The notes: generated by a model from the letters alone, not told the origin. A stretch of 64,000 nucleotides of DNA from Escherichia coli (GCF_965641715.1 NZ_OZ282455.1), one strand, 5' to 3'. Positions 1 to 11,233 are shown, counted from the first letter of the stretch. Translations and numbers: made by a program.

Positions 1-1077
1 GTGTATAAATACACGGCACAATCGCTCCGCCATAAGCGACAGCTTGTGGCAGGTCTGAAGAATACTCCATATAACGCAGTACACTGGAGTCAGTTAGCAC
101 CCGAAGAGCAGATCCGTTTCTGGGAAGACTATGAAGCGGGAAGGGCGACCACTTTCCTGGTTGAACCGGAAAGGAAGCGCACGAAGCGTCGTCGTGGTGA
201 GCACTCCACCAAACCCAAATGCGAAAATCCGTCCTGGTATCGTCCTGAGCGCTATAAGGCGCTGAGCGGGCAGCTCGGGCACGCCTACAACCGTCTGGTG
301 AAAAAGGACCCGGTGACCGGCGAGCAGAGCCTGCGCATGCACATGTCTCTGCATCCTTTTTACGTGCAGAAACGAACGTATGCCGGTCGCAAATATGCTT
401 TCCGTCCGGAAAAACAACGCCTCCTCGATGCCGTCTGGCCGGTTCTGGTCAGCTTCAGTGATGCGGGCACACATACCGTAGGCATGAGTGTTTCCCGTCT
501 GGCCAGAGAAATCAGCCCGAAAGACAGCAAGGGGAAGGTTATTCCGGAACTGGAAGTGACGGTCTCCCGCCTTTCCCGTTTGCTGGCCGAACAGGTACGT
601 TTTGGTGTGCTGGGTGTTTCAGATGAAACCCTGTGGGACCGTGAAACCCGCCAGCGTCTGCCACGCTACGTCTGGATAACACCGGCAGGCTGGCAGATGC
701 TGGGCGTCGACATGGTAAAACTTCACGAACAGCAGCAGAAACGACTGCGTGAAAGTGAAATCCGCCAGCAGCTCATTCGGGAAGGTGTTCTGCGTGAGGA
801 TGAAGATATCTCCGTACATGCGGCCAGAAAACGCTGGTATCTGCAGCGCAGTCAGGATGCGCTGAAACACCGTCGTGCGAAAGCAGCAGCCAGTAAGCGC
901 GCCAGACGCCTGAAGAAACTGCCTGCCGACCAGCAGATTCATGAGATGGCAGAGTATCTCAGGAAGCGTCTGCCTCCGGATGAAGCCTATTTTTGTTCCG
1001 ATGACCATCTGAAGCGAATGGCCATCAGGGAGTTGCGTCAGCTTGAACTGACGCTGGCTGCCCCGCCACCGCACTAG
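1..1077 (+). CDS. plasmid replication initiation protein (IncFII-RepA/RepZ-like family); 5' end may lie upstream of window
   Basis: ORF begins at window edge (GTG), 358 aa, basic C-terminus; followed by ~900 bp non-coding origin-like region with DnaA box; family assignment by motif-level resemblance only. Confidence 0.5.
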   Translation: MYKYTAQSLRHKRQLVAGLKNTPYNAVHWSQLAPEEQIRFWEDYEAGRATTFLVEPERKRTKRRRGEHSTKPKCENPSWYRPERYKALSGQLGHAYNRLVKKDPVTGEQSLRMHMSLHPFYVQKRTYAGRKYAFRPEKQRLLDAVWPVLVSFSDAGTHTVGMSVSRLAREISPKDSKGKVIPELEVTVSRLSRLLAEQVRFGVLGVSDETLWDRETRQRLPRYVWITPAGWQMLGVDMVKLHEQQQKRLRESEIRQQLIREGVLREDEDISVHAARKRWYLQRSQDALKHRRAKAAASKRARRLKKLPADQQIHEMAEYLRKRLPPDEAYFCSDDHLKRMAIRELRQLELTLAAPPPH

Positions 1078-1079
1078 AC

Positions 1080-1980
1080 AGCACCATTCCCTCAGCACTG
1101 AATCATCACCAGCCCCTCCGGGGCTTTCGGCGCTGGTTCCGCTCAGCCCAAAATCCGCAGTAATCACCTTAAATCCCCTCAGAGGGGCATATCTGCCCAT
1201 AAAACCACGCATCAGTCATCAGAACATGGCCACGTTGTTTCAGTTATCCACATAAATCCGCAAACAAAGAACTTTAAGAAGCTGCAAACCTGAAACAGCA
1301 AACCTGCAATATAGTCTTAACCCCATTATTTAATCCCCTGCGTTGCTTCGCCGCAGGGAAAATCTTTATCTCTGAGACCACTGTGAACAAATACAAAGAG
1401 GCCTTCGCTTGCAGCGGCCAAGGCCGCGCCGCTCAGAATCTAAAAGCACCTCCCACGCTGACGCGCGGGCCCCGAACCTCACCGTTCTGAAACCACAACA
1501 AAAAAACATCAGGAATAAAAACACCACACAAACGCAGCACCGTGCCCACCCCTCATAACTGAAAAGCGAGGCCGCCCCCGCCCAAAGGGCGGGAACAACA
1601 TCGCTTTTAATTATGAATGTTGTAACTACACCTCATCATGGCTGTCAGTGTTCTGGCTGGAAGTATCGAGTACACGCTCGTAAGCGGCCCTAACGGCCCG
1701 CTAACGCGGAGATACGCCCCGACTTCGGGTAAACCCTCGTCGGGACCACTCCGACCGCGCACAGAAGCTCTCTCATGGCTGAAAGCGGGTATGGTCTGGC
1801 AGGGCTGGGGATGGGTAAGGTGAAATCTATCAATCCGTACCGGCTTACGCCGGGCTTCGGCGGTTTCACACCTGTGCTACATGTAACCACCGTATGCCGC
1901 CTTACATGCGCTGACGCGCATTATTTGCCTTGTTCCGTCTGAAAGTAATCACTATGATTAAATATGATTAACAACTAATC
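1080..1980. other. putative replication origin/control region downstream of rep
   Basis: Non-coding; DnaA-box TTATCCACA at 1244-1252; GC-rich hairpin cccgccc-aaag-ggcggg around 1566-1590; position relative to rep matches IncFII/I-complex oriR layout. Confidence 0.35.
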
Positions 1981-1984
1981 GGAT

Positions 1985-2269
1985 ATGCAAATGAAAAACA
2001 ATACCGCACAGGCAACAAAAGTCATTACCGCGCATGTGCCATTACCTATGGCTGATAAAGTCGACCAGATGGCCGCCAGGCTGGAACGCTCCCGGGGCTG
2101 GGTTATCAAACAGGCGCTTTCTGCATGGCTTGCCCAGGAGGAGGAGCGTAATCGCCTGACGCTGGAAGCCCTGGACGATGTGACATCCGGACAGGTTATC
2201 GACCATCAGGCTGTACAGGCCTGGGCGGACAGCCTCAGTACTGACAATCCGTTACCGGTGCCACGCTGA
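1985..2269 (+). CDS. ribbon-helix-helix antitoxin (ParD/RelB-like, YacA-like)
   Basis: 94 aa; stop overlaps start of downstream RelE/ParE-like toxin (TGATG); typical antitoxin-first operon. Confidence 0.6.
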   Translation: MQMKNNTAQATKVITAHVPLPMADKVDQMAARLERSRGWVIKQALSAWLAQEEERNRLTLEALDDVTSGQVIDHQAVQAWADSLSTDNPLPVPR

Positions 2270-2544
2270 TGGAACTGAAGTGGACCAGTAAGGCGCTTTC
2301 TGATTTGGCGCGGTTATATGATTTTCTGGTGCTGGCCAGTAAACCTGCGGCCGCCAGAACGGTGCAATCCCTGACACAGGCACCGGTCATTCTGTTAACT
2401 CATCCACGTATGGGAGAACAGTTGTTTCAGTTTGAACCCAGGGAAGTCAGACGGATTTTTGCTGGCGAGTACGAAATCCGTTACGAACTTAATGGCCAGA
2501 CTATTTATGTATTGCGCCTGTGGCACACACGAGAAAACAGGTAG
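2269..2544 (+). CDS. RelE/ParE-family toxin (YacB-like)
   Basis: 91 aa; C-terminal ...YEIRYELNGQTIYVLRLWHTRENR typical of RelE/ParE fold; translationally coupled to upstream antitoxin. Confidence 0.7.
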   Translation: MELKWTSKALSDLARLYDFLVLASKPAAARTVQSLTQAPVILLTHPRMGEQLFQFEPREVRRIFAGEYEIRYELNGQTIYVLRLWHTRENR

Positions 2545-2573
2545 ATTGTGTGTGGGGACAACTTAACATAGCC

Positions 2574-2654
2574 GGGGTCGTTTGCGGGAGAGGGCGAAAT
2601 CCTACGCTAAGGCTTTGGCCAACGATATTCTCCGGTAAGATTGATGTGTTCCCA
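2574..2654. repeat. Tn5393 terminal inverted repeat (strB-proximal end)
   Basis: Sequence recalled from Tn5393/RSF1010 strB-flanking region; Tn3-family GGGG start. Confidence 0.65.
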
Positions 2655-2679
2655 GGGGATAGGAGAAGTCGCTTGATAT

Positions 2680-3516
2680 CTAGTATGACGTCTGTCGCAC
2701 CTGCTTGATCGCGGCCGCGATAGCTAGATCGCGTTGCTCCTCTTCTCCATCCGCGTTCCAAGCTGCGGAAAGGCACCCATAAGCGTACGCCTGGTCGAGC
2801 AGGCGACGCGGATCGACGTCCAGCGCACGAGAGAATGCGTCCGCCATCTGTGCAATGCGTCTAGGATCGAGACAAAGGTCGTCTCTGTCAGCCGGATCGT
2901 AGAACATATTGGCGGCGCCAAAGCCCACTTCACCGACCAGACCGACGGGATCTATCACCAGCCAGCCGCGACTGGAGAACATGATGTTTTCATGATGCAG
3001 ATCGCCATGTAGCCCACGCAGTTCCGAGGCATTGCTCATCATTTGATCGGCTATAATCGCCGCGTGGACGTAGTCAGTTTGACAACCTGCGTTTTGATCA
3101 TCGCGCGCCCGCTGAAACAAAGCTGCAAAGCGATCCCGGATCGGGAGAAGGGCAGAAGGCAGGGGTTCCTCAGATGCGGCATACAGCTTCGCCATTAGTT
3201 CCGCTGCAATTTCGGTCGCCTGGTAGTCGCCGTGCTCGGCAACGATGTGAGAGAGCATTCGCTCCCCGGCATATTCGAGCAACATCAGATTGTTCTCACG
3301 ACCGAGCAACCGGACTGCTCCCCTCCCATTGCGCCATACCAGATAGTCGGCCCCGCGCAGTTCATCAGCAATGTCTTCTATAGGTTTCAATCCCTTGACG
3401 ATTGCAGGAGTCCCGTCTGGCAATGAAACTTTCCAAACGAGGCTGGAAAAGGTGTCCGCAATGAGAACAGGTTGCGAAACGTGCCAATGAGCAGGAAAAA
3501 CAGGCGGCATGAACAT
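2680..3516 (-). CDS. strB: aminoglycoside 6-phosphotransferase APH(6)-Id (streptomycin resistance)
   Basis: Translation from internal Met MFMPPVFPAHWHVSQPV... to ...AAAIKQVRQTSY matches StrB as recalled. Confidence 0.95.
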   Translation of the reverse strand: MFMPPVFPAHWHVSQPVLIADTFSSLVWKVSLPDGTPAIVKGLKPIEDIADELRGADYLVWRNGRGAVRLLGRENNLMLLEYAGERMLSHIVAEHGDYQATEIAAELMAKLYAASEEPLPSALLPIRDRFAALFQRARDDQNAGCQTDYVHAAIIADQMMSNASELRGLHGDLHHENIMFSSRGWLVIDPVGLVGEVGFGAANMFYDPADRDDLCLDPRRIAQMADAFSRALDVDPRRLLDQAYAYGCLSAAWNADGEEEQRDLAIAAAIKQVRQTSY

Positions 3517-4319
3517 CAACCCCAAGTCAGAGGGTCCAATCGCAGATAGAAGGCAAGGCGTTCGCGGTCGGGGGCTTCGATCCCCAATACATTGAATAGG
3601 ACAGCGAAGGCGCGCTCTGCTTCATCTGGCGCTGCCCAGTTCTCTTCGGCGTTAGCAATCATGAGTGCCAAATCGGCATAGCGATCTGCTGTTCCGAGCC
3701 GCCCAAGGTCGATCAGACCCGTGCATTGAAGAGTTTTAGGGTCCACCATGAAGTTCGGCATGCAGGGATCACCATGGCAAACAACCATATCGGTGCGCTC
3801 TTGGTCGAGCCGCACCGGTAGCTCTCGTTCGACACGAGCCAAAAGATCGAGCTGCGGCGTACTCTTGTCCTCGTCCGGTAAGAAGTCGGGATTGACGGCA
3901 TTGCGGGACACCACATCAACGGCGCGTCCGAACATTCGCGACAGCCTGCGCTCAAACGGACATTGATCAACCGATAGGCTGTGAACAGCGCCAAGTTGCT
4001 GCCCCATTGACGGCCACGCTTTGAGCAAATCCGCTCCAGACAGATCAGCCGCCGGTACTCCCGGAATTGCCGTTATCACCAAGCATGCACCCTCCTGTTC
4101 CTCCTGCCAGTTGATCACCTCGGGGCAAGCCACACCTCGACCTTTGAGCCAAATGAGGCGGTCACGCTCTCCAGCGAGCTCACCGCGGCGGGAAGCAGGT
4201 GCGATTTTCGCGAAGGCATGCCCGTCACCACGTCGAAAAACAAAATCACCAGATTCTCCGCCTCTGACAGGCAACCAGTCAGAATGCGATTCACCAAAAA
4301 AAATATTAGTTCGATTCAA
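3516..4319 (-). CDS. strA: aminoglycoside 3''-phosphotransferase APH(3'')-Ib (streptomycin resistance)
   Basis: Translation (L/M)NRTNIFFGESHSDWLPVRGG...RLDPLTWG matches StrA; TTG start at 4319; six-frame ORF extends artificially upstream to 4505. Confidence 0.93.
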   Translation of the reverse strand: MNRTNIFFGESHSDWLPVRGGESGDFVFRRGDGHAFAKIAPASRRGELAGERDRLIWLKGRGVACPEVINWQEEQEGACLVITAIPGVPAADLSGADLLKAWPSMGQQLGAVHSLSVDQCPFERRLSRMFGRAVDVVSRNAVNPDFLPDEDKSTPQLDLLARVERELPVRLDQERTDMVVCHGDPCMPNFMVDPKTLQCTGLIDLGRLGTADRYADLALMIANAEENWAAPDEAERAFAVLFNVLGIEAPDRERLAFYLRLDPLTWG

Positions 4320-4425
4320 TGGAGGTTCCTTCAGTTTTCTGATGAAGCGCGGAGGTGGCTCAACCTGCGAAAAGAAACGAGTTGCTATGGACTTGCACCG
4401 GTTGTGTTCCGGTCTATCTCTCATT

Positions 4426-5283
4426 TTAAGCGGCTTTTTTCTCAAATGCCACCGGCGATTTCCAGCCGAGTGTTGAATGTCTTCGGCGTGGATTATAAAA
4501 GCCATTTATATATTCGAAGATTGCAATCTCAATATCTCGCCTTGTTTGCCAGTGTCTGCGCCAAATCAACTCAGCCTTTAATGATTTAAAGAAGCTTTCT
4601 ACTGCGGAGTTATCAAAACAATTGCCTTTCCCGCTCATGGACGGCAGCAATTGATGTTTGAGCAGTAGCTTTTGATATTCATGAGCGCAATATTGGCTCC
4701 CACGGTCTGTGTGTTGAATACAACCCGGTGGTGGTTTGCGTAAAGCCAACGCCATATTCAGTGCCCTTAATGCAAGATCCTGCTTTAATCGATCACCTGT
4801 TGCCCAGCCAATCACGCGACGGGAATACAGGTCAAGGATAACAGCAAGATAGACCCATCCTTCTCTGGTCCAAACATAAGTGATATCGCCTGCCCATTTC
4901 TGGTTGGGTGCGCTTGCGCTAAAGTCTTGTTTTAATAGGTTCGGTGCAATGTTGAAGGTATGATGACTATCCGTTGTCCGTTTGAATTTACGCGTTCGAA
5001 CAACTGTAATGTTATTCTGGCGCATCAAACGTCCAACCCGACGCTGCCCAACCTGCAGGCCCAGCGCTTTCAACTCTTCTGTCATACGCGGCCTACCATA
5101 GCTCCCCAAACACAACCGATGCTGCTCACGTATATGCGCTAGAAGTATAAGATCACGACGCTGGCGCAGTGATGGAGGACGGCGTTTCCATGCACGTAAA
5201 CCACGATCTGTTACGCCCATCAAACGACATATGCGTGAACGTGAGAGAGAGCCACGGTAATCCGTAATAAACTGAAATCTCAC
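4426..5283 (-). CDS. IS3-family transposase OrfB (DDE integrase domain)
   Basis: 285 aa; motifs ...NQKWAGDITYV...HTDRGSQY...NSAVESFF... typical IS3 OrfB; start overlaps orfA stop. Confidence 0.85.
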   Translation of the reverse strand: MRFQFITDYRGSLSRSRICRLMGVTDRGLRAWKRRPPSLRQRRDLILLAHIREQHRLCLGSYGRPRMTEELKALGLQVGQRRVGRLMRQNNITVVRTRKFKRTTDSHHTFNIAPNLLKQDFSASAPNQKWAGDITYVWTREGWVYLAVILDLYSRRVIGWATGDRLKQDLALRALNMALALRKPPPGCIQHTDRGSQYCAHEYQKLLLKHQLLPSMSGKGNCFDNSAVESFFKSLKAELIWRRHWQTRRDIEIAIFEYINGFYNPRRRHSTLGWKSPVAFEKKAA

Positions 5284-5533
5284 AGCTTTTGTACTGCGAA
5301 AAATATTGCTGCCTTTTTTAATATCTCCCTCTCCTCCCGAAGGATACGGTTCTCTTTGCGTAAACGTTCATTCTCACGCAGAAGATCAGTGTCTTGGGTA
5401 GGAATTTTAGTTTCATCGGAAATTGATGCGATCCATTTCCCAAGCGTGGAAAGCCCAATACTTAAATCTGACGCAACTTGACGGCGTGTTAAGCCACTAG
5501 TGAGTGCTATGCGAACTGCATCACGCTTAAATT
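5280..5533 (-). pseudogene. IS3-family OrfA, N-terminally truncated
   Basis: HTH/leucine-zipper OrfA-like sequence ...FKRDAVRIALTSGLTRRQVASDL... without start; upstream in-frame codons are encoded by the Tn1722-like IR. Confidence 0.55.
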
Positions 5534-5571
5534 GGGGAGCCCGCAGAATTCGGAAAAAATCGTACGCTAAG
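5534..5571. repeat. Tn1721/Tn1722-type 38-bp terminal inverted repeat (tnpA end)
   Basis: GGGGAGCCCGCAGAATTCGGAAAAAATCGTACGCTAAG. Confidence 0.85.
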
Positions 5572-6283
5572 GTTTTCCGGGCATCCGTAAGGGCCGAAAC
5601 TTCCCGTCTTCCAGTCTGCGGCTCTGCCGCCAGACGTAATCGCCGGTTAGGTTGATGTGCTCCCAGCCCAGCGGCGACAGGAATTGCAGCAGCTCGCCGT
5701 CCACCGGCTTGCCGGCCTCGACCAACCCCTGGGTGGCGCGTTCCAGGTACACCGTGTTCCACAGCACGATAGCCGCCGTCACCAGGTTGAGGCCGCTGGC
5801 CCGGTAGCGCTGCTGCTCGAAGCTCCGATCCCTGATTTCCCCAAGGCGGTTGAAGAACACCGCCCTGGCCAGCGAGTTGCGCGCCTCACCTTTGTTCAGG
5901 CCGGCATGCACGCGGCGGCGCAGTTCAACACTTTGCAGCCAGTCCAGGATGAACAGCGTGCGCTCGATCCGGCCCAGCTCGCGCAGGGCCACGGCCAGTC
6001 CGTTCTGGCGCGGGTAGCTGCCGAGCTTGCGCAGCATCAGCGAGGCGGTGACGGTGCCCTGCTTGATCGAGCTGGCCAGGCGCAGGATGTCGTCCCAGTG
6101 GGCACGCACGTGCTTGATGTTCAGGGTGCCGCCGATCAGCGGGCGCAACGTCGGGTAGGCTTGCACGCCCTGCGGCACGTACAGCTTGGTTTCGCCGAGG
6201 TCGCGGATGCGCGGCGCGAAGCGGAAGCCTAGCAGGTGCATCAGGGCAAAGACGTGATCGGTGAAGCCGGCCGTGTCGGTGTA
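5567..6283 (-). pseudogene. tnpA: Tn1721-like TnpA, C-terminal fragment (split by Tn2 insertion)
   Basis: Translation ...[13 protein letters not shown]...[12 protein letters not shown]... is the Tn21-subfamily TnpA C-terminus; stop inside terminal IR. Confidence 0.85.
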
Positions 6284-6321
6284 GGGGTCTGACGCTCAGT
6301 GGAACGAAAACTCACGTTAAG
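6284..6321. repeat. Tn3-family 38-bp terminal inverted repeat (tnpA end of Tn2)
   Basis: GGGGTCTGACGCTCAGTGGAACGAAAACTCACGTTAAG. Confidence 0.95.
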
Positions 6322-9300
6322 CAACGTTTTCTGCCTCTGACGCCTCTTTTAATGGTCTCAGATGTCCTTTGGTCACCAGTTCTGCCAGCGTGAAGGAATA
6401 ATGGCCGAGCATATTGATATGTCCGTGGCAAAGCGGGGAGAGGCGTGCGATATCTTCATCATTCAGTGTTTCACCCTGCGCCCGGAGATGATCCAGGGCT
6501 GCCTGCATATAAATAGTGTTCCATAACACGACGGCGTTAGTGACCAGCCCCAGTGCGCCCAGTTGATCTTCCTGACCGTCGGTATATCGTTTTCTTATCT
6601 CACCTTTTTGACCGTGACAGATGGCTCTGGCAACGGCATGGCGACTTTCTCCCCGATTAAGCTGGGTCAGAATGCGCCGGCGGTAATCTTCATCATCAAT
6701 ATAATTAAGCAGATACAGCGTTTTGTTGATGCGCCCCACTTCAATGATTGCCTGAGTCAGTCCGGAAGGACGTTCACTTTTCAGCAATGAACGGACCAGC
6801 ACTGAAGCCTGTACTTTGCCCAGCTTCAGGGAGCCAGCGGTCCGGATCATTTCGTCCCACTGAAGGACTATTTTTCGGGGATCTGATTGCCCTCTGGCAA
6901 TATCATTCAGCACGCCATAGTCGGCATCATGGTCCATTCGCCAGAAAACCGAAGCACCGGCATCAGCCAGGCGTGGAGAAAACTGGTATCCCAGCAGCCA
7001 GAAAAGGCCAAAGACAAGTTCGCTGGCACCTGCTGTATCGGTCATAATTTCGGTTGGATTCAGCCCGGTCTCCTGTTCCAGAAGACCTTCCAGCACAAAG
7101 ATAGAGTCCCTCAGCGTCCCCGGTATAACGATGCCATGAAAGCCGGAATACTGATCGGACACAAAGTTGTACCAGGTGATCCCTCTGTTATTACCAAAGT
7201 ATTTGCGGTTCGGTCCGGCATTGATTGTTCTGACTGGCGTAACAAAGCGCATTCCATCTGCAGATGCCACTTCTCCTCCACCCCATATCTGTGCCAGTGG
7301 CAGCGTTGCCTGAAAATCAACCAGTCTGGCATTAGCGCTGGTGATAGTTTCAGCCCGCAGATAGTTCGCTTTTGTCCAGTTCAGCCGGTGTCGGGTCAGT
7401 GCAGGAACATTTGATCTGATCAGTGGTTCCAGACCGATATTGCAGGCTTCAGCCATCAGCACGGCGCTGATGCTGACGGGCAGATCATCAACTCTGGCAC
7501 TGGCTTCACTAGCATGGAAAAACTCATCAGCAAATCCGGTATGGGCGTTAATTTCGAGCAGCAACTCCGTTAAATCCACCGGAGGGAGTAGATCACTGAT
7601 CATTTTGCTCAGTCGTTTCAGACTGTCCGGCTCATCAAGACTGGCGAGGGGAGAAATTGTCAACCGGGGCTTCGGGCCAGAAACATCGAGTTCGACAGCC
7701 TCATTTTCGCAAAGACGTGCAGCAACCTGTCTGTAACGACTATCAAGCTGATGACCCAGAGATTTTATTGCTTCCTGCGGGTCTGTCGGGTGCCCCAAAG
7801 AACGATAAACCTTAATCCGGTTTGCCTGCCAGTCAGCACCCTGTAGTAATCTTGCACGAGGATCTCCCCACCGGTTACTGCCGGTAACGTAGACATCCCT
7901 CCGCCTCAGACTATCCTGCAGTTTACTGAGAAAGCAGAGCGTGTATCCCCTGCGGGTGATATGTTTTTCCTTGTTAATCACCAGCCGTTTCCATGACCGA
8001 CTGATAATTTCCGTTGGTGCGTCGTCAAAAAACTGCCGCCGTGAGCTGAACTCCCGGCTGAGGTAGTCACAGGCATTCAGAGTGGTAACCCCGGCAGGTG
8101 CGGATGAAAATTTAACGGTATTCAGCAGATGGGGCAGGAAACGACGAACGCGCCCGTACTGCTCCACCATTTCTTCATGAAAATTATCGTCTGAGGGCCG
8201 GGCAATTTCACGGACAAGCGTGATGATTTCAGCCAGCTTTTGCCTTGGGATGTAGCTGAACACCTCAGCACGAATCGATTCGTCCGGTGTTTCTTCTTTC
8301 AGCAGGTACGAACATGCGCTGGCGAGCGCCAATGCAGATTTATCCAGATCCTTCAGCGAGCGGAGCCGTTTTTTCTGCCCAATCTTTCTGGCGTCACGGA
8401 TGATAACGGCCAGCATGGCGTCCAGAACGTCCAATGCATCATCCAGCGCCAGCGTTTCCCATGCAAGGACAAAGGCAACCAGAACCGCCATCCTTTTCTG
8501 CGGTGACATCCTGGCAATATTGAACACCGAAGTCATACCAGCATAACGTGCGAGATTTTTCAGGCGCACAGCCGGGAGTGTACTCAGGTTTTCAGCATGC
8601 AGGCCAAAATCGTTCAGAGTTTTCCAGCGTTCAATTGCTTCATTAAACGCCGGACCACTGATGGTCACAGGGCCCTTTTTCAGTGATTCCAGTAAAGACA
8701 GGCGGCTGCAATCAGTTGGCCCCAGCAGCATCTCCAGCTGTGAACGCTGTTCGGCTGACGGTATCAGTGCCAGTTTGTTCCACAGGCGCAACGTCGCCTT
8801 TTCCCTTACCTCTGAAATCAACCGGGTCAGCGTAGTGGCTCCGGGGAGAATAATACGATGTTGCATAAGCCACCCTGTCGCCAGATCGAAAAGCAGGCCA
8901 GGACGTTCGTTGCTTATCCAGCTCCGGGTATATAAAAGACGGGTAAGGCGAAATGTCCAGGGCCAGGCAAATTCACGATACTGATAGTGCTGACGTATCA
9001 GCGCTGCATGCTCACGGCGGGTATTTTCCCTCTGACCGTATTCTGCAAGAACGGTGATATCACGAATCCCGAGCTGTCTGGCGGTAAAATGCCGGACGCC
9101 GGAAGGAATATGATTCATATCGGTGAGGAAGGTGCCCAGAAAACGGACACATCCAATTTGCAGGGCAATGCCCAGACGGTTGTGATCACCTCTGCTTTTT
9201 CCGATAAATTCCTTGTCTGCTTCATCAAGGTGAAAATATCGTGCCAGCTGAAGCTCATCCGGTTCACCGGTGAATCTGCCATAGCTTTCAGTCTGCTCAG

Positions 9301-9322
9301 TGGTCAGAAAGTCAACGGGCAT
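6317..9322 (-). CDS. tnpA: Tn3/Tn2 transposase TnpA
   Basis: 1001 aa from MPVDFLTTEQTESYGRF... to ...LKEASEAENVA; six-frame ORF is extended 53 codons upstream. Confidence 0.95.
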   Translation of the reverse strand: MPVDFLTTEQTESYGRFTGEPDELQLARYFHLDEADKEFIGKSRGDHNRLGIALQIGCVRFLGTFLTDMNHIPSGVRHFTARQLGIRDITVLAEYGQRENTRREHAALIRQHYQYREFAWPWTFRLTRLLYTRSWISNERPGLLFDLATGWLMQHRIILPGATTLTRLISEVREKATLRLWNKLALIPSAEQRSQLEMLLGPTDCSRLSLLESLKKGPVTISGPAFNEAIERWKTLNDFGLHAENLSTLPAVRLKNLARYAGMTSVFNIARMSPQKRMAVLVAFVLAWETLALDDALDVLDAMLAVIIRDARKIGQKKRLRSLKDLDKSALALASACSYLLKEETPDESIRAEVFSYIPRQKLAEIITLVREIARPSDDNFHEEMVEQYGRVRRFLPHLLNTVKFSSAPAGVTTLNACDYLSREFSSRRQFFDDAPTEIISRSWKRLVINKEKHITRRGYTLCFLSKLQDSLRRRDVYVTGSNRWGDPRARLLQGADWQANRIKVYRSLGHPTDPQEAIKSLGHQLDSRYRQVAARLCENEAVELDVSGPKPRLTISPLASLDEPDSLKRLSKMISDLLPPVDLTELLLEINAHTGFADEFFHASEASARVDDLPVSISAVLMAEACNIGLEPLIRSNVPALTRHRLNWTKANYLRAETITSANARLVDFQATLPLAQIWGGGEVASADGMRFVTPVRTINAGPNRKYFGNNRGITWYNFVSDQYSGFHGIVIPGTLRDSIFVLEGLLEQETGLNPTEIMTDTAGASELVFGLFWLLGYQFSPRLADAGASVFWRMDHDADYGVLNDIARGQSDPRKIVLQWDEMIRTAGSLKLGKVQASVLVRSLLKSERPSGLTQAIIEVGRINKTLYLLNYIDDEDYRRRILTQLNRGESRHAVARAICHGQKGEIRKRYTDGQEDQLGALGLVTNAVVLWNTIYMQAALDHLRAQGETLNDEDIARLSPLCHGHINMLGHYSFTLAELVTKGHLRPLKEASEAENVA

Positions 9323-10043
<721 letters not shown>

Positions 10044-10149
10044 TACGCCTATTTTTATAGGTTAATGTCATGATAATAATGGTTTCTTAGACGTCAGGTG
10101 GCACTTTTCGGGGAAATGTGCGCGGAACCCCTATTTGTTTATTTTTCTA

Positions 10150-11086
<937 letters not shown>

Positions 11087-11195
11087 CTGTCAGACCAAGT
11101 TTACTCATATATACTTTAGATTGATTTAAAACTTCATTTTTAATTTAAAAGGATCTAGGTGAAGATCCTTTTTGATAATCTCATGACCAAAATCC

Positions 11196-11233
11196 CTTAA
11201 CGTGAGTTTTCGTTCCACTGAGCGTCAGACCCC
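11196..11233. repeat. Tn3-family 38-bp terminal inverted repeat (bla end of Tn2)
   Basis: CTTAACGTGAGTTTTCGTTCCACTGAGCGTCAGACCCC. Confidence 0.95.

Follow-up and report, generated by a model that had tools for sequence, protein, structure and literature searches.

The window analysed here, a 64,000-nt stretch of Escherichia coli DNA (GCF_965641715.1, NZ_OZ282455.1; coordinates are counted from its first letter), opens with a replication gene and a toxin-antitoxin gene pair and then passes directly into a resistance island that begins with an end of Tn5393, which raises the question of which replicon and which kind of addiction module these are, and whether their contact with the island means anything. 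In our reading, positions 1-2573 are the basic replicon of a conjugative plasmid of the IncI1 complex followed by a ParDE-type type II toxin-antitoxin cassette, and we put the probability of this reading at roughly 0.85. By megablast of 1-2620 against PLSDB (72,556 records), 1-2573 was recognised as IncI1 backbone, with 99.5% identity to the Salmonella plasmid pSAN1-1727; 296 records, pSAN1-1727 included, covered at least 80% of the query, and the IncI1-type matches (~300 plasmids) all stopped exactly at 2573. The relatives inspected, pSAN1-1727, pCE0032f2 and pSAG-76334, were typed as IncI-gamma/K1, MOBP and MPF_I, corresponding to the IncI1 complex, and window positions 30098-58239 were collinear with the stability, leading, nikAB and trbABC regions of pSAN1-1727 (IncI1). 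These IncI1 matches and the collinear 30098-58239 indicate that the window is the first 64 kb of an IncI1 plasmid. The family E-values given below and the 99.5% identity across 2573 bp to known plasmids exclude a chance origin of the gene calls.

The replication gene is repZ (repA in RefSeq), encoding an IncI1-type replication initiator of 343 aa; it occupies 46-1077 on the plus strand, starts with GTG and is complete in the window. The ORF (open reading frame) matched the NCBIfam equivalog RepA_IncFII_LM ('plasmid replication initiator RepA') over the full model (315 bits, cutoff 70, E 4.8e-94), so that the replication gene named in a preliminary description of the window is confirmed and is not a fragment of an unrelated gene. 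RepZ differs from WP_000907873.1 by a single amino acid (D193E), and at least 1000 public contigs carry the exact 343-aa protein, annotated generically. The preliminary description had also stated that the ORF runs to the window edge, which is correct, and that its N-terminus can therefore not be resolved, which is not: frame 1 is open from base 1 to 1077 (358 aa from GTG 1), but this is merely the longest reading frame, and the RefSeq coding sequence in pSAN1-1727 and pCE0032f2 starts at the window's GTG 46. We place the true repZ start at this GTG, 45 nt downstream of window base 1, because the RefSeq annotation, the annotation of pESBL and the geometry of repY agree. Public databases also contain a 358-aa version of RepZ, and among the PLSDB matches many deposited IncI1 records begin exactly at window base 1; these records suggest that the window start is a record origin placed on an over-extended repZ ORF call. 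For annotation, the 358-aa 'RepZ' read from base 1 should be treated as such an over-extended ORF, and GTG 46 as the real start.

The region upstream of GTG 46 carries the ends of two regulatory elements. Translation of 2-58 on the plus strand gave CINTRHNRSAISDSLWQV followed by a stop, which is the 3' end of the repY leader peptide gene (last 18 codons of a 29-aa peptide, with the TGA stop at 56-58). The full repY ORF in pCE0032f2 (2969-3058) encodes MKPYQRFNPVQCINTRHNRSAISDSLWQV and ends at the position equivalent to window 58; the start codon of repY is located 32 nt before window base 1, and repY and repZ overlap by 13 nt. The annotation of pESBL, made via its identity with R64, gives a RepY of 90 nt, a RepZ of 1032 nt and the same 13-nt overlap (PMC4288162). 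The other element is the PK-repZ translational-control RNA, whose last 33 nt lie at 1-33 on the plus strand (Rfam model positions 118-150; 33 of 150 positions present, 5' truncated by the window edge; 35 bits, E 3.3e-05, gathering score 44) and include the CGCC tract, the pairing partner of the GGCG loop further upstream. The same RNA is complete in pCE0032f2 (99.1% identical; 194.5 bits, 2885-3033, its end corresponding to window 33). The presence of both the 33-nt end of PK-repZ and the end of repY indicates that the window begins inside the translational-control region of repZ. The repY start, the Inc antisense RNA with its target stem-loop and the promoter lie upstream of base 1, and the Inc RNA/target region is present in pCE0032f2 (2885-2945). 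The earlier expectation that the rep start, the leader peptide and the antisense RNA are to be sought upstream of the window thus holds for these parts, but not for the repZ start or the last 18 codons of repY; the 3' end of PK-repZ likewise lies in the window.

Control of repZ by repY translation, pseudoknot formation and inhibition by the Inc antisense RNA is established for ColIb-P9. The anatomy of the ColIb-P9/R64 replicon (inc-repY-repZ-CIS-oriV) recurs here in the 343-aa RepZ, the 29-aa repY, the 13-nt overlap, the non-coding CIS/oriV spacer and the gene order, without any structural difference, with the 3' end of PK-repZ in the window and the whole element in pCE0032f2. The Inc RNA region, on which incompatibility and PlasmidFinder typing are based, falls before window base 1; in typing, the relatives inspected were IncI-gamma/K1 (MOB-suite), whereas R64 is of the I1-alpha type. 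By analogy with ColIb-P9, synthesis of RepZ would require translation of the repY leader, which would open a hairpin and allow the pseudoknot to form beside the repZ ribosome-binding site, and the Inc antisense RNA would block the repY translation/pseudoknot step. RepZ would then initiate replication at oriV just downstream, acting in cis through CIS.

The non-coding stretch that follows repZ (1078-1920) can be assigned as CIS-oriV-ter by homology to the IncI1 replicon, with the functions of its sub-elements presumed from the same homology, and the published order of the IncI backbone likewise places CIS-oriV-ter after rep (PMC6361801). No coding sequence is annotated between 1078 and ~1920 in pSAN1-1727 or pCE0032f2, and one short hypothetical in pMRSN346355_120.3, an IncI1 plasmid carrying the YacAB pair discussed below. 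As far as ~1918, the spacer (~840 bp) was ~98% identical to that of the YacAB-type IncI1 plasmid. A perfect match to the established DnaA-box consensus, TTATCCACA, was read at 1244-1252 on the plus strand, and G-site-like single-strand structure in 1630-1900 was indistinguishable from that of shuffled sequences (z = +0.4 and −1.2). The spacer ends at a terminator-like hairpin, ATGCGCTGACGCGCAT, with a T-rich tail (1906-1921, plus strand), which forms the left edge of an exchangeable toxin-antitoxin cassette.

The cassette consists of two genes on the plus strand, an antitoxin gene at 1985-2269, encoding a 94-aa ribbon-helix-helix (RHH; CopG/ParD-like) protein (Pfam RHH_1, E 1.2e-10, residues 14-51), and an intact toxin gene at 2269-2544, encoding a 91-aa ParE-type protein (Pfam ParE_toxin PF05016, E 7.7e-17). 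The two genes share one base (TGATG), and a ParE-family toxin with an upstream, overlapping RHH antitoxin gene is the organisation of ParDE-type systems. The RHH_1 and ParE_toxin matches agree with the earlier designation as a toxin-antitoxin pair of the RelE/ParE superfamily with both ORFs intact. The antitoxin is identical to WP_001178089.1, and exact copies, generically named, were found on ~1000 (antitoxin) and at least 1000 (toxin) public contigs. In PLSDB, ~1650 plasmids of E. coli, Shigella, Salmonella and Klebsiella carry a toxin copy with an identity of at least 95%. The 91-aa family has a constant length and is 75-82% identical in Aeromonas, Photorhabdus, Pseudomonas, Burkholderiales and Rhizobiales, which argues for selection on the toxin protein.

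The sole promoter-like match in 1-2800, a putative operon promoter at 1939-1971 on the plus strand (−35 CTGAAA at 1939, 18-nt spacer, −10 TATGAT at 1963), lies just ahead of the antitoxin gene and is overlapped by a tandem direct repeat of TATGATTAA (1953-1961 and 1963-1971). This 9-mer occurs at only these two sites in 64 kb, and two or more copies were seen in 1 of 100 shuffles; the repeats are a plausible candidate for the operator of the RHH antitoxin. The pair most likely works like other ParDE systems, by analogy with which toxicity, target, operator and plasmid stabilisation are assigned here. The antitoxin dimer would repress its own promoter via the repeats at 1953-1971, and the C-terminal part of the antitoxin would neutralise the toxin; upon plasmid loss the labile antitoxin would decay, and the ParE-fold toxin would then arrest growth, most probably by poisoning DNA gyrase.

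In IncI1 plasmids the toxin gene is normally followed by a 92-aa ORF (pSAN1-1727 3059-3337), which had no Pfam or PADLOC match and may belong to the module as a third component; it accompanies the cassette in an IncF plasmid too. In that IncFIB/IncFII plasmid (L007), the same cassette and the 92-aa ORF lie away from any rep gene, beside metabolic cargo, indicating that the cassette moves independently of the IncI1 replicon. Frameshifted copies of the toxin gene were found in a further ~980 PLSDB plasmids, mostly IncF plasmids of Klebsiella and E. coli, with residues 13-91 in two pieces at 88.6% identity; these copies are unannotated, as the PLSDB gene tables omit pseudogenes. One of them (L006, 3501-3771) lies between IS26 and parM/stbAB.

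A better-studied pair is known from the same site. For ParDE-I (YacA/YacB) of the IncI1 plasmid pJIE512b, toxicity, neutralisation, SOS induction, filamentation, plasmid stabilisation and tolerance to antibiotics and heat were reported (Kamruzzaman and Iredell 2019; PMC6614396). The two loci are alike in lying immediately downstream of oriV and near a resistance region, and in the short antitoxin gene that overlaps the gene of a ~91-aa ParE-family toxin. That study searched for ParDE-I at a threshold of at least 80% nucleotide identity (PMC6614396), and we used for comparison pMRSN346355_120.3, which is listed there as 100%. This plasmid carries yacA and yacB at the same site after a near-identical rep-ori region, and its DNA homology with the window ends at ~1918. 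The toxins of the two pairs are 25% identical and the antitoxins are without detectable similarity, the published ParDE-I primers had no match in the window, and the NCBIfam YacB model did not match the window toxin. The surroundings differ as well, YacAB being followed by a 3'-5' exonuclease gene and the pair seen here normally by the 92-aa ORF. Identity of the pair with YacAB/ParDE-I was therefore rejected. Of the pairs described for Shigella pINV (yacAB, orf0111-0112 and RelBE), two could be assigned to other types: the yacAB primers fit the YacAB type, and RelBE is of the P307 type.

The IncI1 site was thus found in three states, namely with YacAB and the 3'-5' exonuclease gene (rep-ori-yacAB in 491 PLSDB records), with the RHH/ParE pair seen here and the 92-aa ORF (296 PLSDB records), or with no pair, as in pESBL (PMC4288162). 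When the exchanged segments were compared (window ~1918-2573 versus 1897-3401 of a YacAB-type plasmid, L005), homology broke off sharply at the hairpin 1906-1921. The phenotypes of ParDE-I/YacAB (antibiotic and heat tolerance, stability) should accordingly not be assigned to plasmids with the window cassette.

Several points weigh against a working ParDE module as we read it. Our literature search found no experiment on this exact 94-aa/91-aa pair, nor any published test of the cassette, despite its presence in the ~1650 plasmids mentioned above. The number of promoter-like matches in 1-2800 does not exceed that in shuffled sequences, i.e. the putative promoter is a weak consensus match, and the 92-aa ORF is deleted in the window, so that the module is incomplete here if this ORF is part of the system. 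To our knowledge, not every toxin of the ParE fold has been shown to inhibit gyrase. The phenotypes published for YacAB belong to a different cassette and are not transferable to this pair, and in mice pJIE512b could be cured despite its analogous pair (PMC5330492). The ~980 plasmids with frameshifted toxin copies indicate that the toxin is dispensable in some lineages.

The last two of these points would also be expected if the pair were a passenger or decaying relic with no measurable role in maintenance, plasmid stability being provided instead by the partition systems and the type I system pnd. Other parts of the window, or close relatives, do contain partition genes and the pnd region, and pESBL and some other IncI1 plasmids have no pair at the locus (PMC4288162). 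We nevertheless regard a relic as unlikely, if by no means negligible: both ORFs are intact in the window and each is an exact match on ~1000 or more contigs, the 91-aa toxin family is strongly conserved across Proteobacteria, and rep, ori and the pair are kept together in the 296 IncI1-type records.

The toxin might alternatively be a RelE-like, ribosome-dependent mRNA endonuclease and not a ParE-like gyrase poison, because both Pfam PF05016 and the RefSeq name 'RelE/ParE family toxin' span the two mechanisms. The toxin was modelled by AlphaFold2 from 19 homologues (mean predicted local distance difference test score, pLDDT, 91.9), and the model was compared with the PDB by Foldseek. In the model, one short strand is followed by two long helices and then by a four-stranded sheet, and a C-terminal helix is absent; we take this order of elements to be the ParE arrangement, which speaks against a RelE-type fold. 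The top 21 matches were all ParE toxins (template modelling score, TM, 0.76-0.86), from sources including P. aeruginosa, Mesorhizobium, E. coli O157 (ParE2), M. tuberculosis (ParE1), V. cholerae (ParE2), PrpT and Caulobacter (ParE1). Structures of RelE, YoeB and HigB were also retrieved with a probability near 1, but they ranked below all ParE structures (ranks 22-50) with TM mostly 0.45-0.70, indicating that the RelE-type fold is not the closer one. By sequence, the toxin and the antitoxin each matched both partners of two ParE-class complexes, 6XRW (P. aeruginosa ParDE) and 7ETR (Shewanella SO_1444-SO_1445), whose antitoxins, partners of ParE-type toxins, are the best solved relatives of the window antitoxin. 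Like the window pair, these complexes combine an RHH/CopG-type antitoxin with a ParE-fold toxin (TM to 6XRW 0.79-0.80), whereas sequence identity is only ~23-27% and 6XRW is chromosomal according to its PDB entry, not plasmid-borne; the 7ETR system is prophage-borne. The toxin has a His/Arg-rich C-terminal tail (WHTRENR), which would suit a RelE-like enzyme. Weighed together, a RelE-like toxin is improbable, and by its modelled fold the toxin is ParE-like. Of the label 'RelE/ParE' in the preliminary description, the superfamily is retained and the RelE half is dropped. P. aeruginosa ParE has gyrase-poison activity, and gyrase poisoning is the mechanism favoured by the fold of the model for the window toxin.

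Beyond the toxin stop codon (2542-2544), the last backbone stretch covers 29 nt (2545-2573), where uninterrupted IncI1 plasmids continue with TGCAGATATTAATTC, and the strB-proximal terminal inverted repeat of Tn5393 begins at 2574 (2574-2654, plus strand, 81 bp, beginning GGGGTCGTTTGCGGGAG), forming the left boundary of the island. The pair therefore does abut the Tn5393 end directly, as was noted before; the gap of 30 bp given there is the difference between 2574 and 2544, and 29 nt lie between the stop codon and the repeat. Compared with the left repeat of pSAG-76334, whose Tn5393 is complete, it showed 4 mismatches in 81 bp, and the strB, strA, IS1133 and tnpR that follow it were 99.97% identical to the pSAG-76334 copy. 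The right boundary is a 38-bp inverted repeat at 16091-16128, GGGGGAACCGCAGAATTCGGAAAAAATCGTACGCTAAG on the minus strand, which we take to be of the Tn1721 type, also in view of the neighbouring TnAs1-family/Tn1721-type genes. The island thus spans 2574-16128 (13.5 kb), and the IncI1 backbone resumes at 16129, corresponding to pSAN1-1727 position 3838. Between the two boundaries, 855 bp of backbone were lost (pSAN1-1727 2983-3837), including the 92-aa ORF and a second small ORF.

An intact Tn5393 has two 81-bp repeats and a 5-bp target duplication; that of pSAG-76334 is complete and flanked by a 5-bp duplication, TATAA, whereas the window copy has one repeat only. No second Tn5393 inverted repeat was found within the 64-kb window, and no target duplication was found around the island, the flanks being TAGCC and TTCTT. 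A single Tn5393 repeat, a far end of the Tn1721 type, the missing duplication and the loss of 855 bp show that this is not a clean Tn5393 insertion but a composite island bounded by two different transposon ends, which resulted from rearrangement and deletion. A search with the left junction (2300-2900) found no record spanning it, either among the 72,556 of PLSDB or among 5,426 complete E. coli genomes. At the right boundary, the gene at the yafA position (16092-16622, minus strand) has its 3' end cut by the Tn1721-type repeat and its C-terminus replaced; the ORF runs into the repeat and encodes 176 aa, compared with 164 aa in pSAN1-1727. Within the island, the segments 5534-6284, 6284-11233 and 11234-16129 were all 100% identical to the IncN plasmid pTE_C_1, but Tn3 (blaTEM-1) is placed differently with respect to the Tn5393 and Tn1721 fragments, a shift in position that suggests recombination or re-insertion within the island.

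On its far side the island is followed by a gene at the yafB/fopA position (16639-17241, minus strand), which encodes a 200-aa ProQ/FinO-domain protein (Pfam ProQ, E 1.4e-12); a ProQ/FINO family protein is annotated at the equivalent locus in pSAN1-1727 and pCE0032f2. YafB/FopA of pCol1B9 binds the Inc RNA and accelerates Inc-repZ pairing (PMC7491321), and the window protein, a probable FopA orthologue by position and domain, is likely to act as an RNA chaperone on the Inc antisense RNA and repZ mRNA. The island lies between repZ and this gene, and hence within the wider neighbourhood of replication control and not next to it.

Does the contact of island, replicon and pair then carry meaning? 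It had been argued that physical linkage of the resistance region to the replicon and an addiction module favours co-maintenance. The linkage itself is real, but the argument has little content, since it holds for every gene of a plasmid. In a stronger form, adjacency itself would have been selected, for example because deletion derivatives that keep the replicon, or mobilised segments, would keep resistance as well. Accessory DNA is indeed found within a few kb downstream of the ori and pair in pSAG-76334, pMRSN346355_120.3, pJIE512b and pESBL: pSAG-76334 carries Tn5393::Tn3, oppositely oriented, at a point ~750 bp farther along, pMRSN346355_120.3 has IS26/ISApl1/blaTEM after yacC, and the blaCMY-2 region of pJIE512b is 'closely located' to ParDE-I (PMC6614396). 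R64 carries a Tn5393-derived module (PMC6361801). However, the insertion points differ among plasmids, the exact junction seen here is absent from PLSDB and the complete E. coli genomes and so has not spread, and the island separates repZ from the likely replication-control gene at the yafB/fopA position. Repeated insertion would be explained equally well if the stretch were simply non-essential DNA lying between blocks that are essential, and the accessory insertions fit such a tolerated stretch better than selection for contact with the pair, so that selected adjacency is in our view a doubtful explanation with little probability.

We found no sign of a functional coupling of the island with the replicon or the pair beyond their sharing a molecule. 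Such a coupling could take two forms, an additional action of the antitoxin on plasmid replication, or antisense read-through between strA-strB and the pair that ties resistance expression to addiction. For the former, PrpA, the antitoxin of the ParE-type system PrpT/PrpA (7YCS, found at a lower rank in the structural comparison), is an antitoxin that binds iterons of the origin and determines the copy number of its plasmid; the candidate operator repeat TATGATTAA does not recur in the origin. For the latter, with the native 3' flank gone, transcription from strA-strB might continue antisense into the toxin gene, or that of the pair antisense into strB, and no minus-strand terminator-like site was found between strB (2680) and the toxin stop (2544). 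Either form is highly improbable.

All parts of the IncI1 replicon and ParDE-type cassette described above are already known and their arrangement is ordinary, a textbook IncI1 backbone whose proteins have exact copies on ~1000 or more public contigs. What is of use here is the corrected repZ start, the assignment of the toxin to ParE and not RelE, and the warning that the pair is not YacAB/ParDE-I. A search for anti-phage defence by PADLOC gave 0 matches. In pCE0032f2, a full-length C4 antisense RNA (Rfam RF01695, 77.5 bits) was found at 1945-2032 on the minus strand, ~1 kb upstream of the position that corresponds to the window start.

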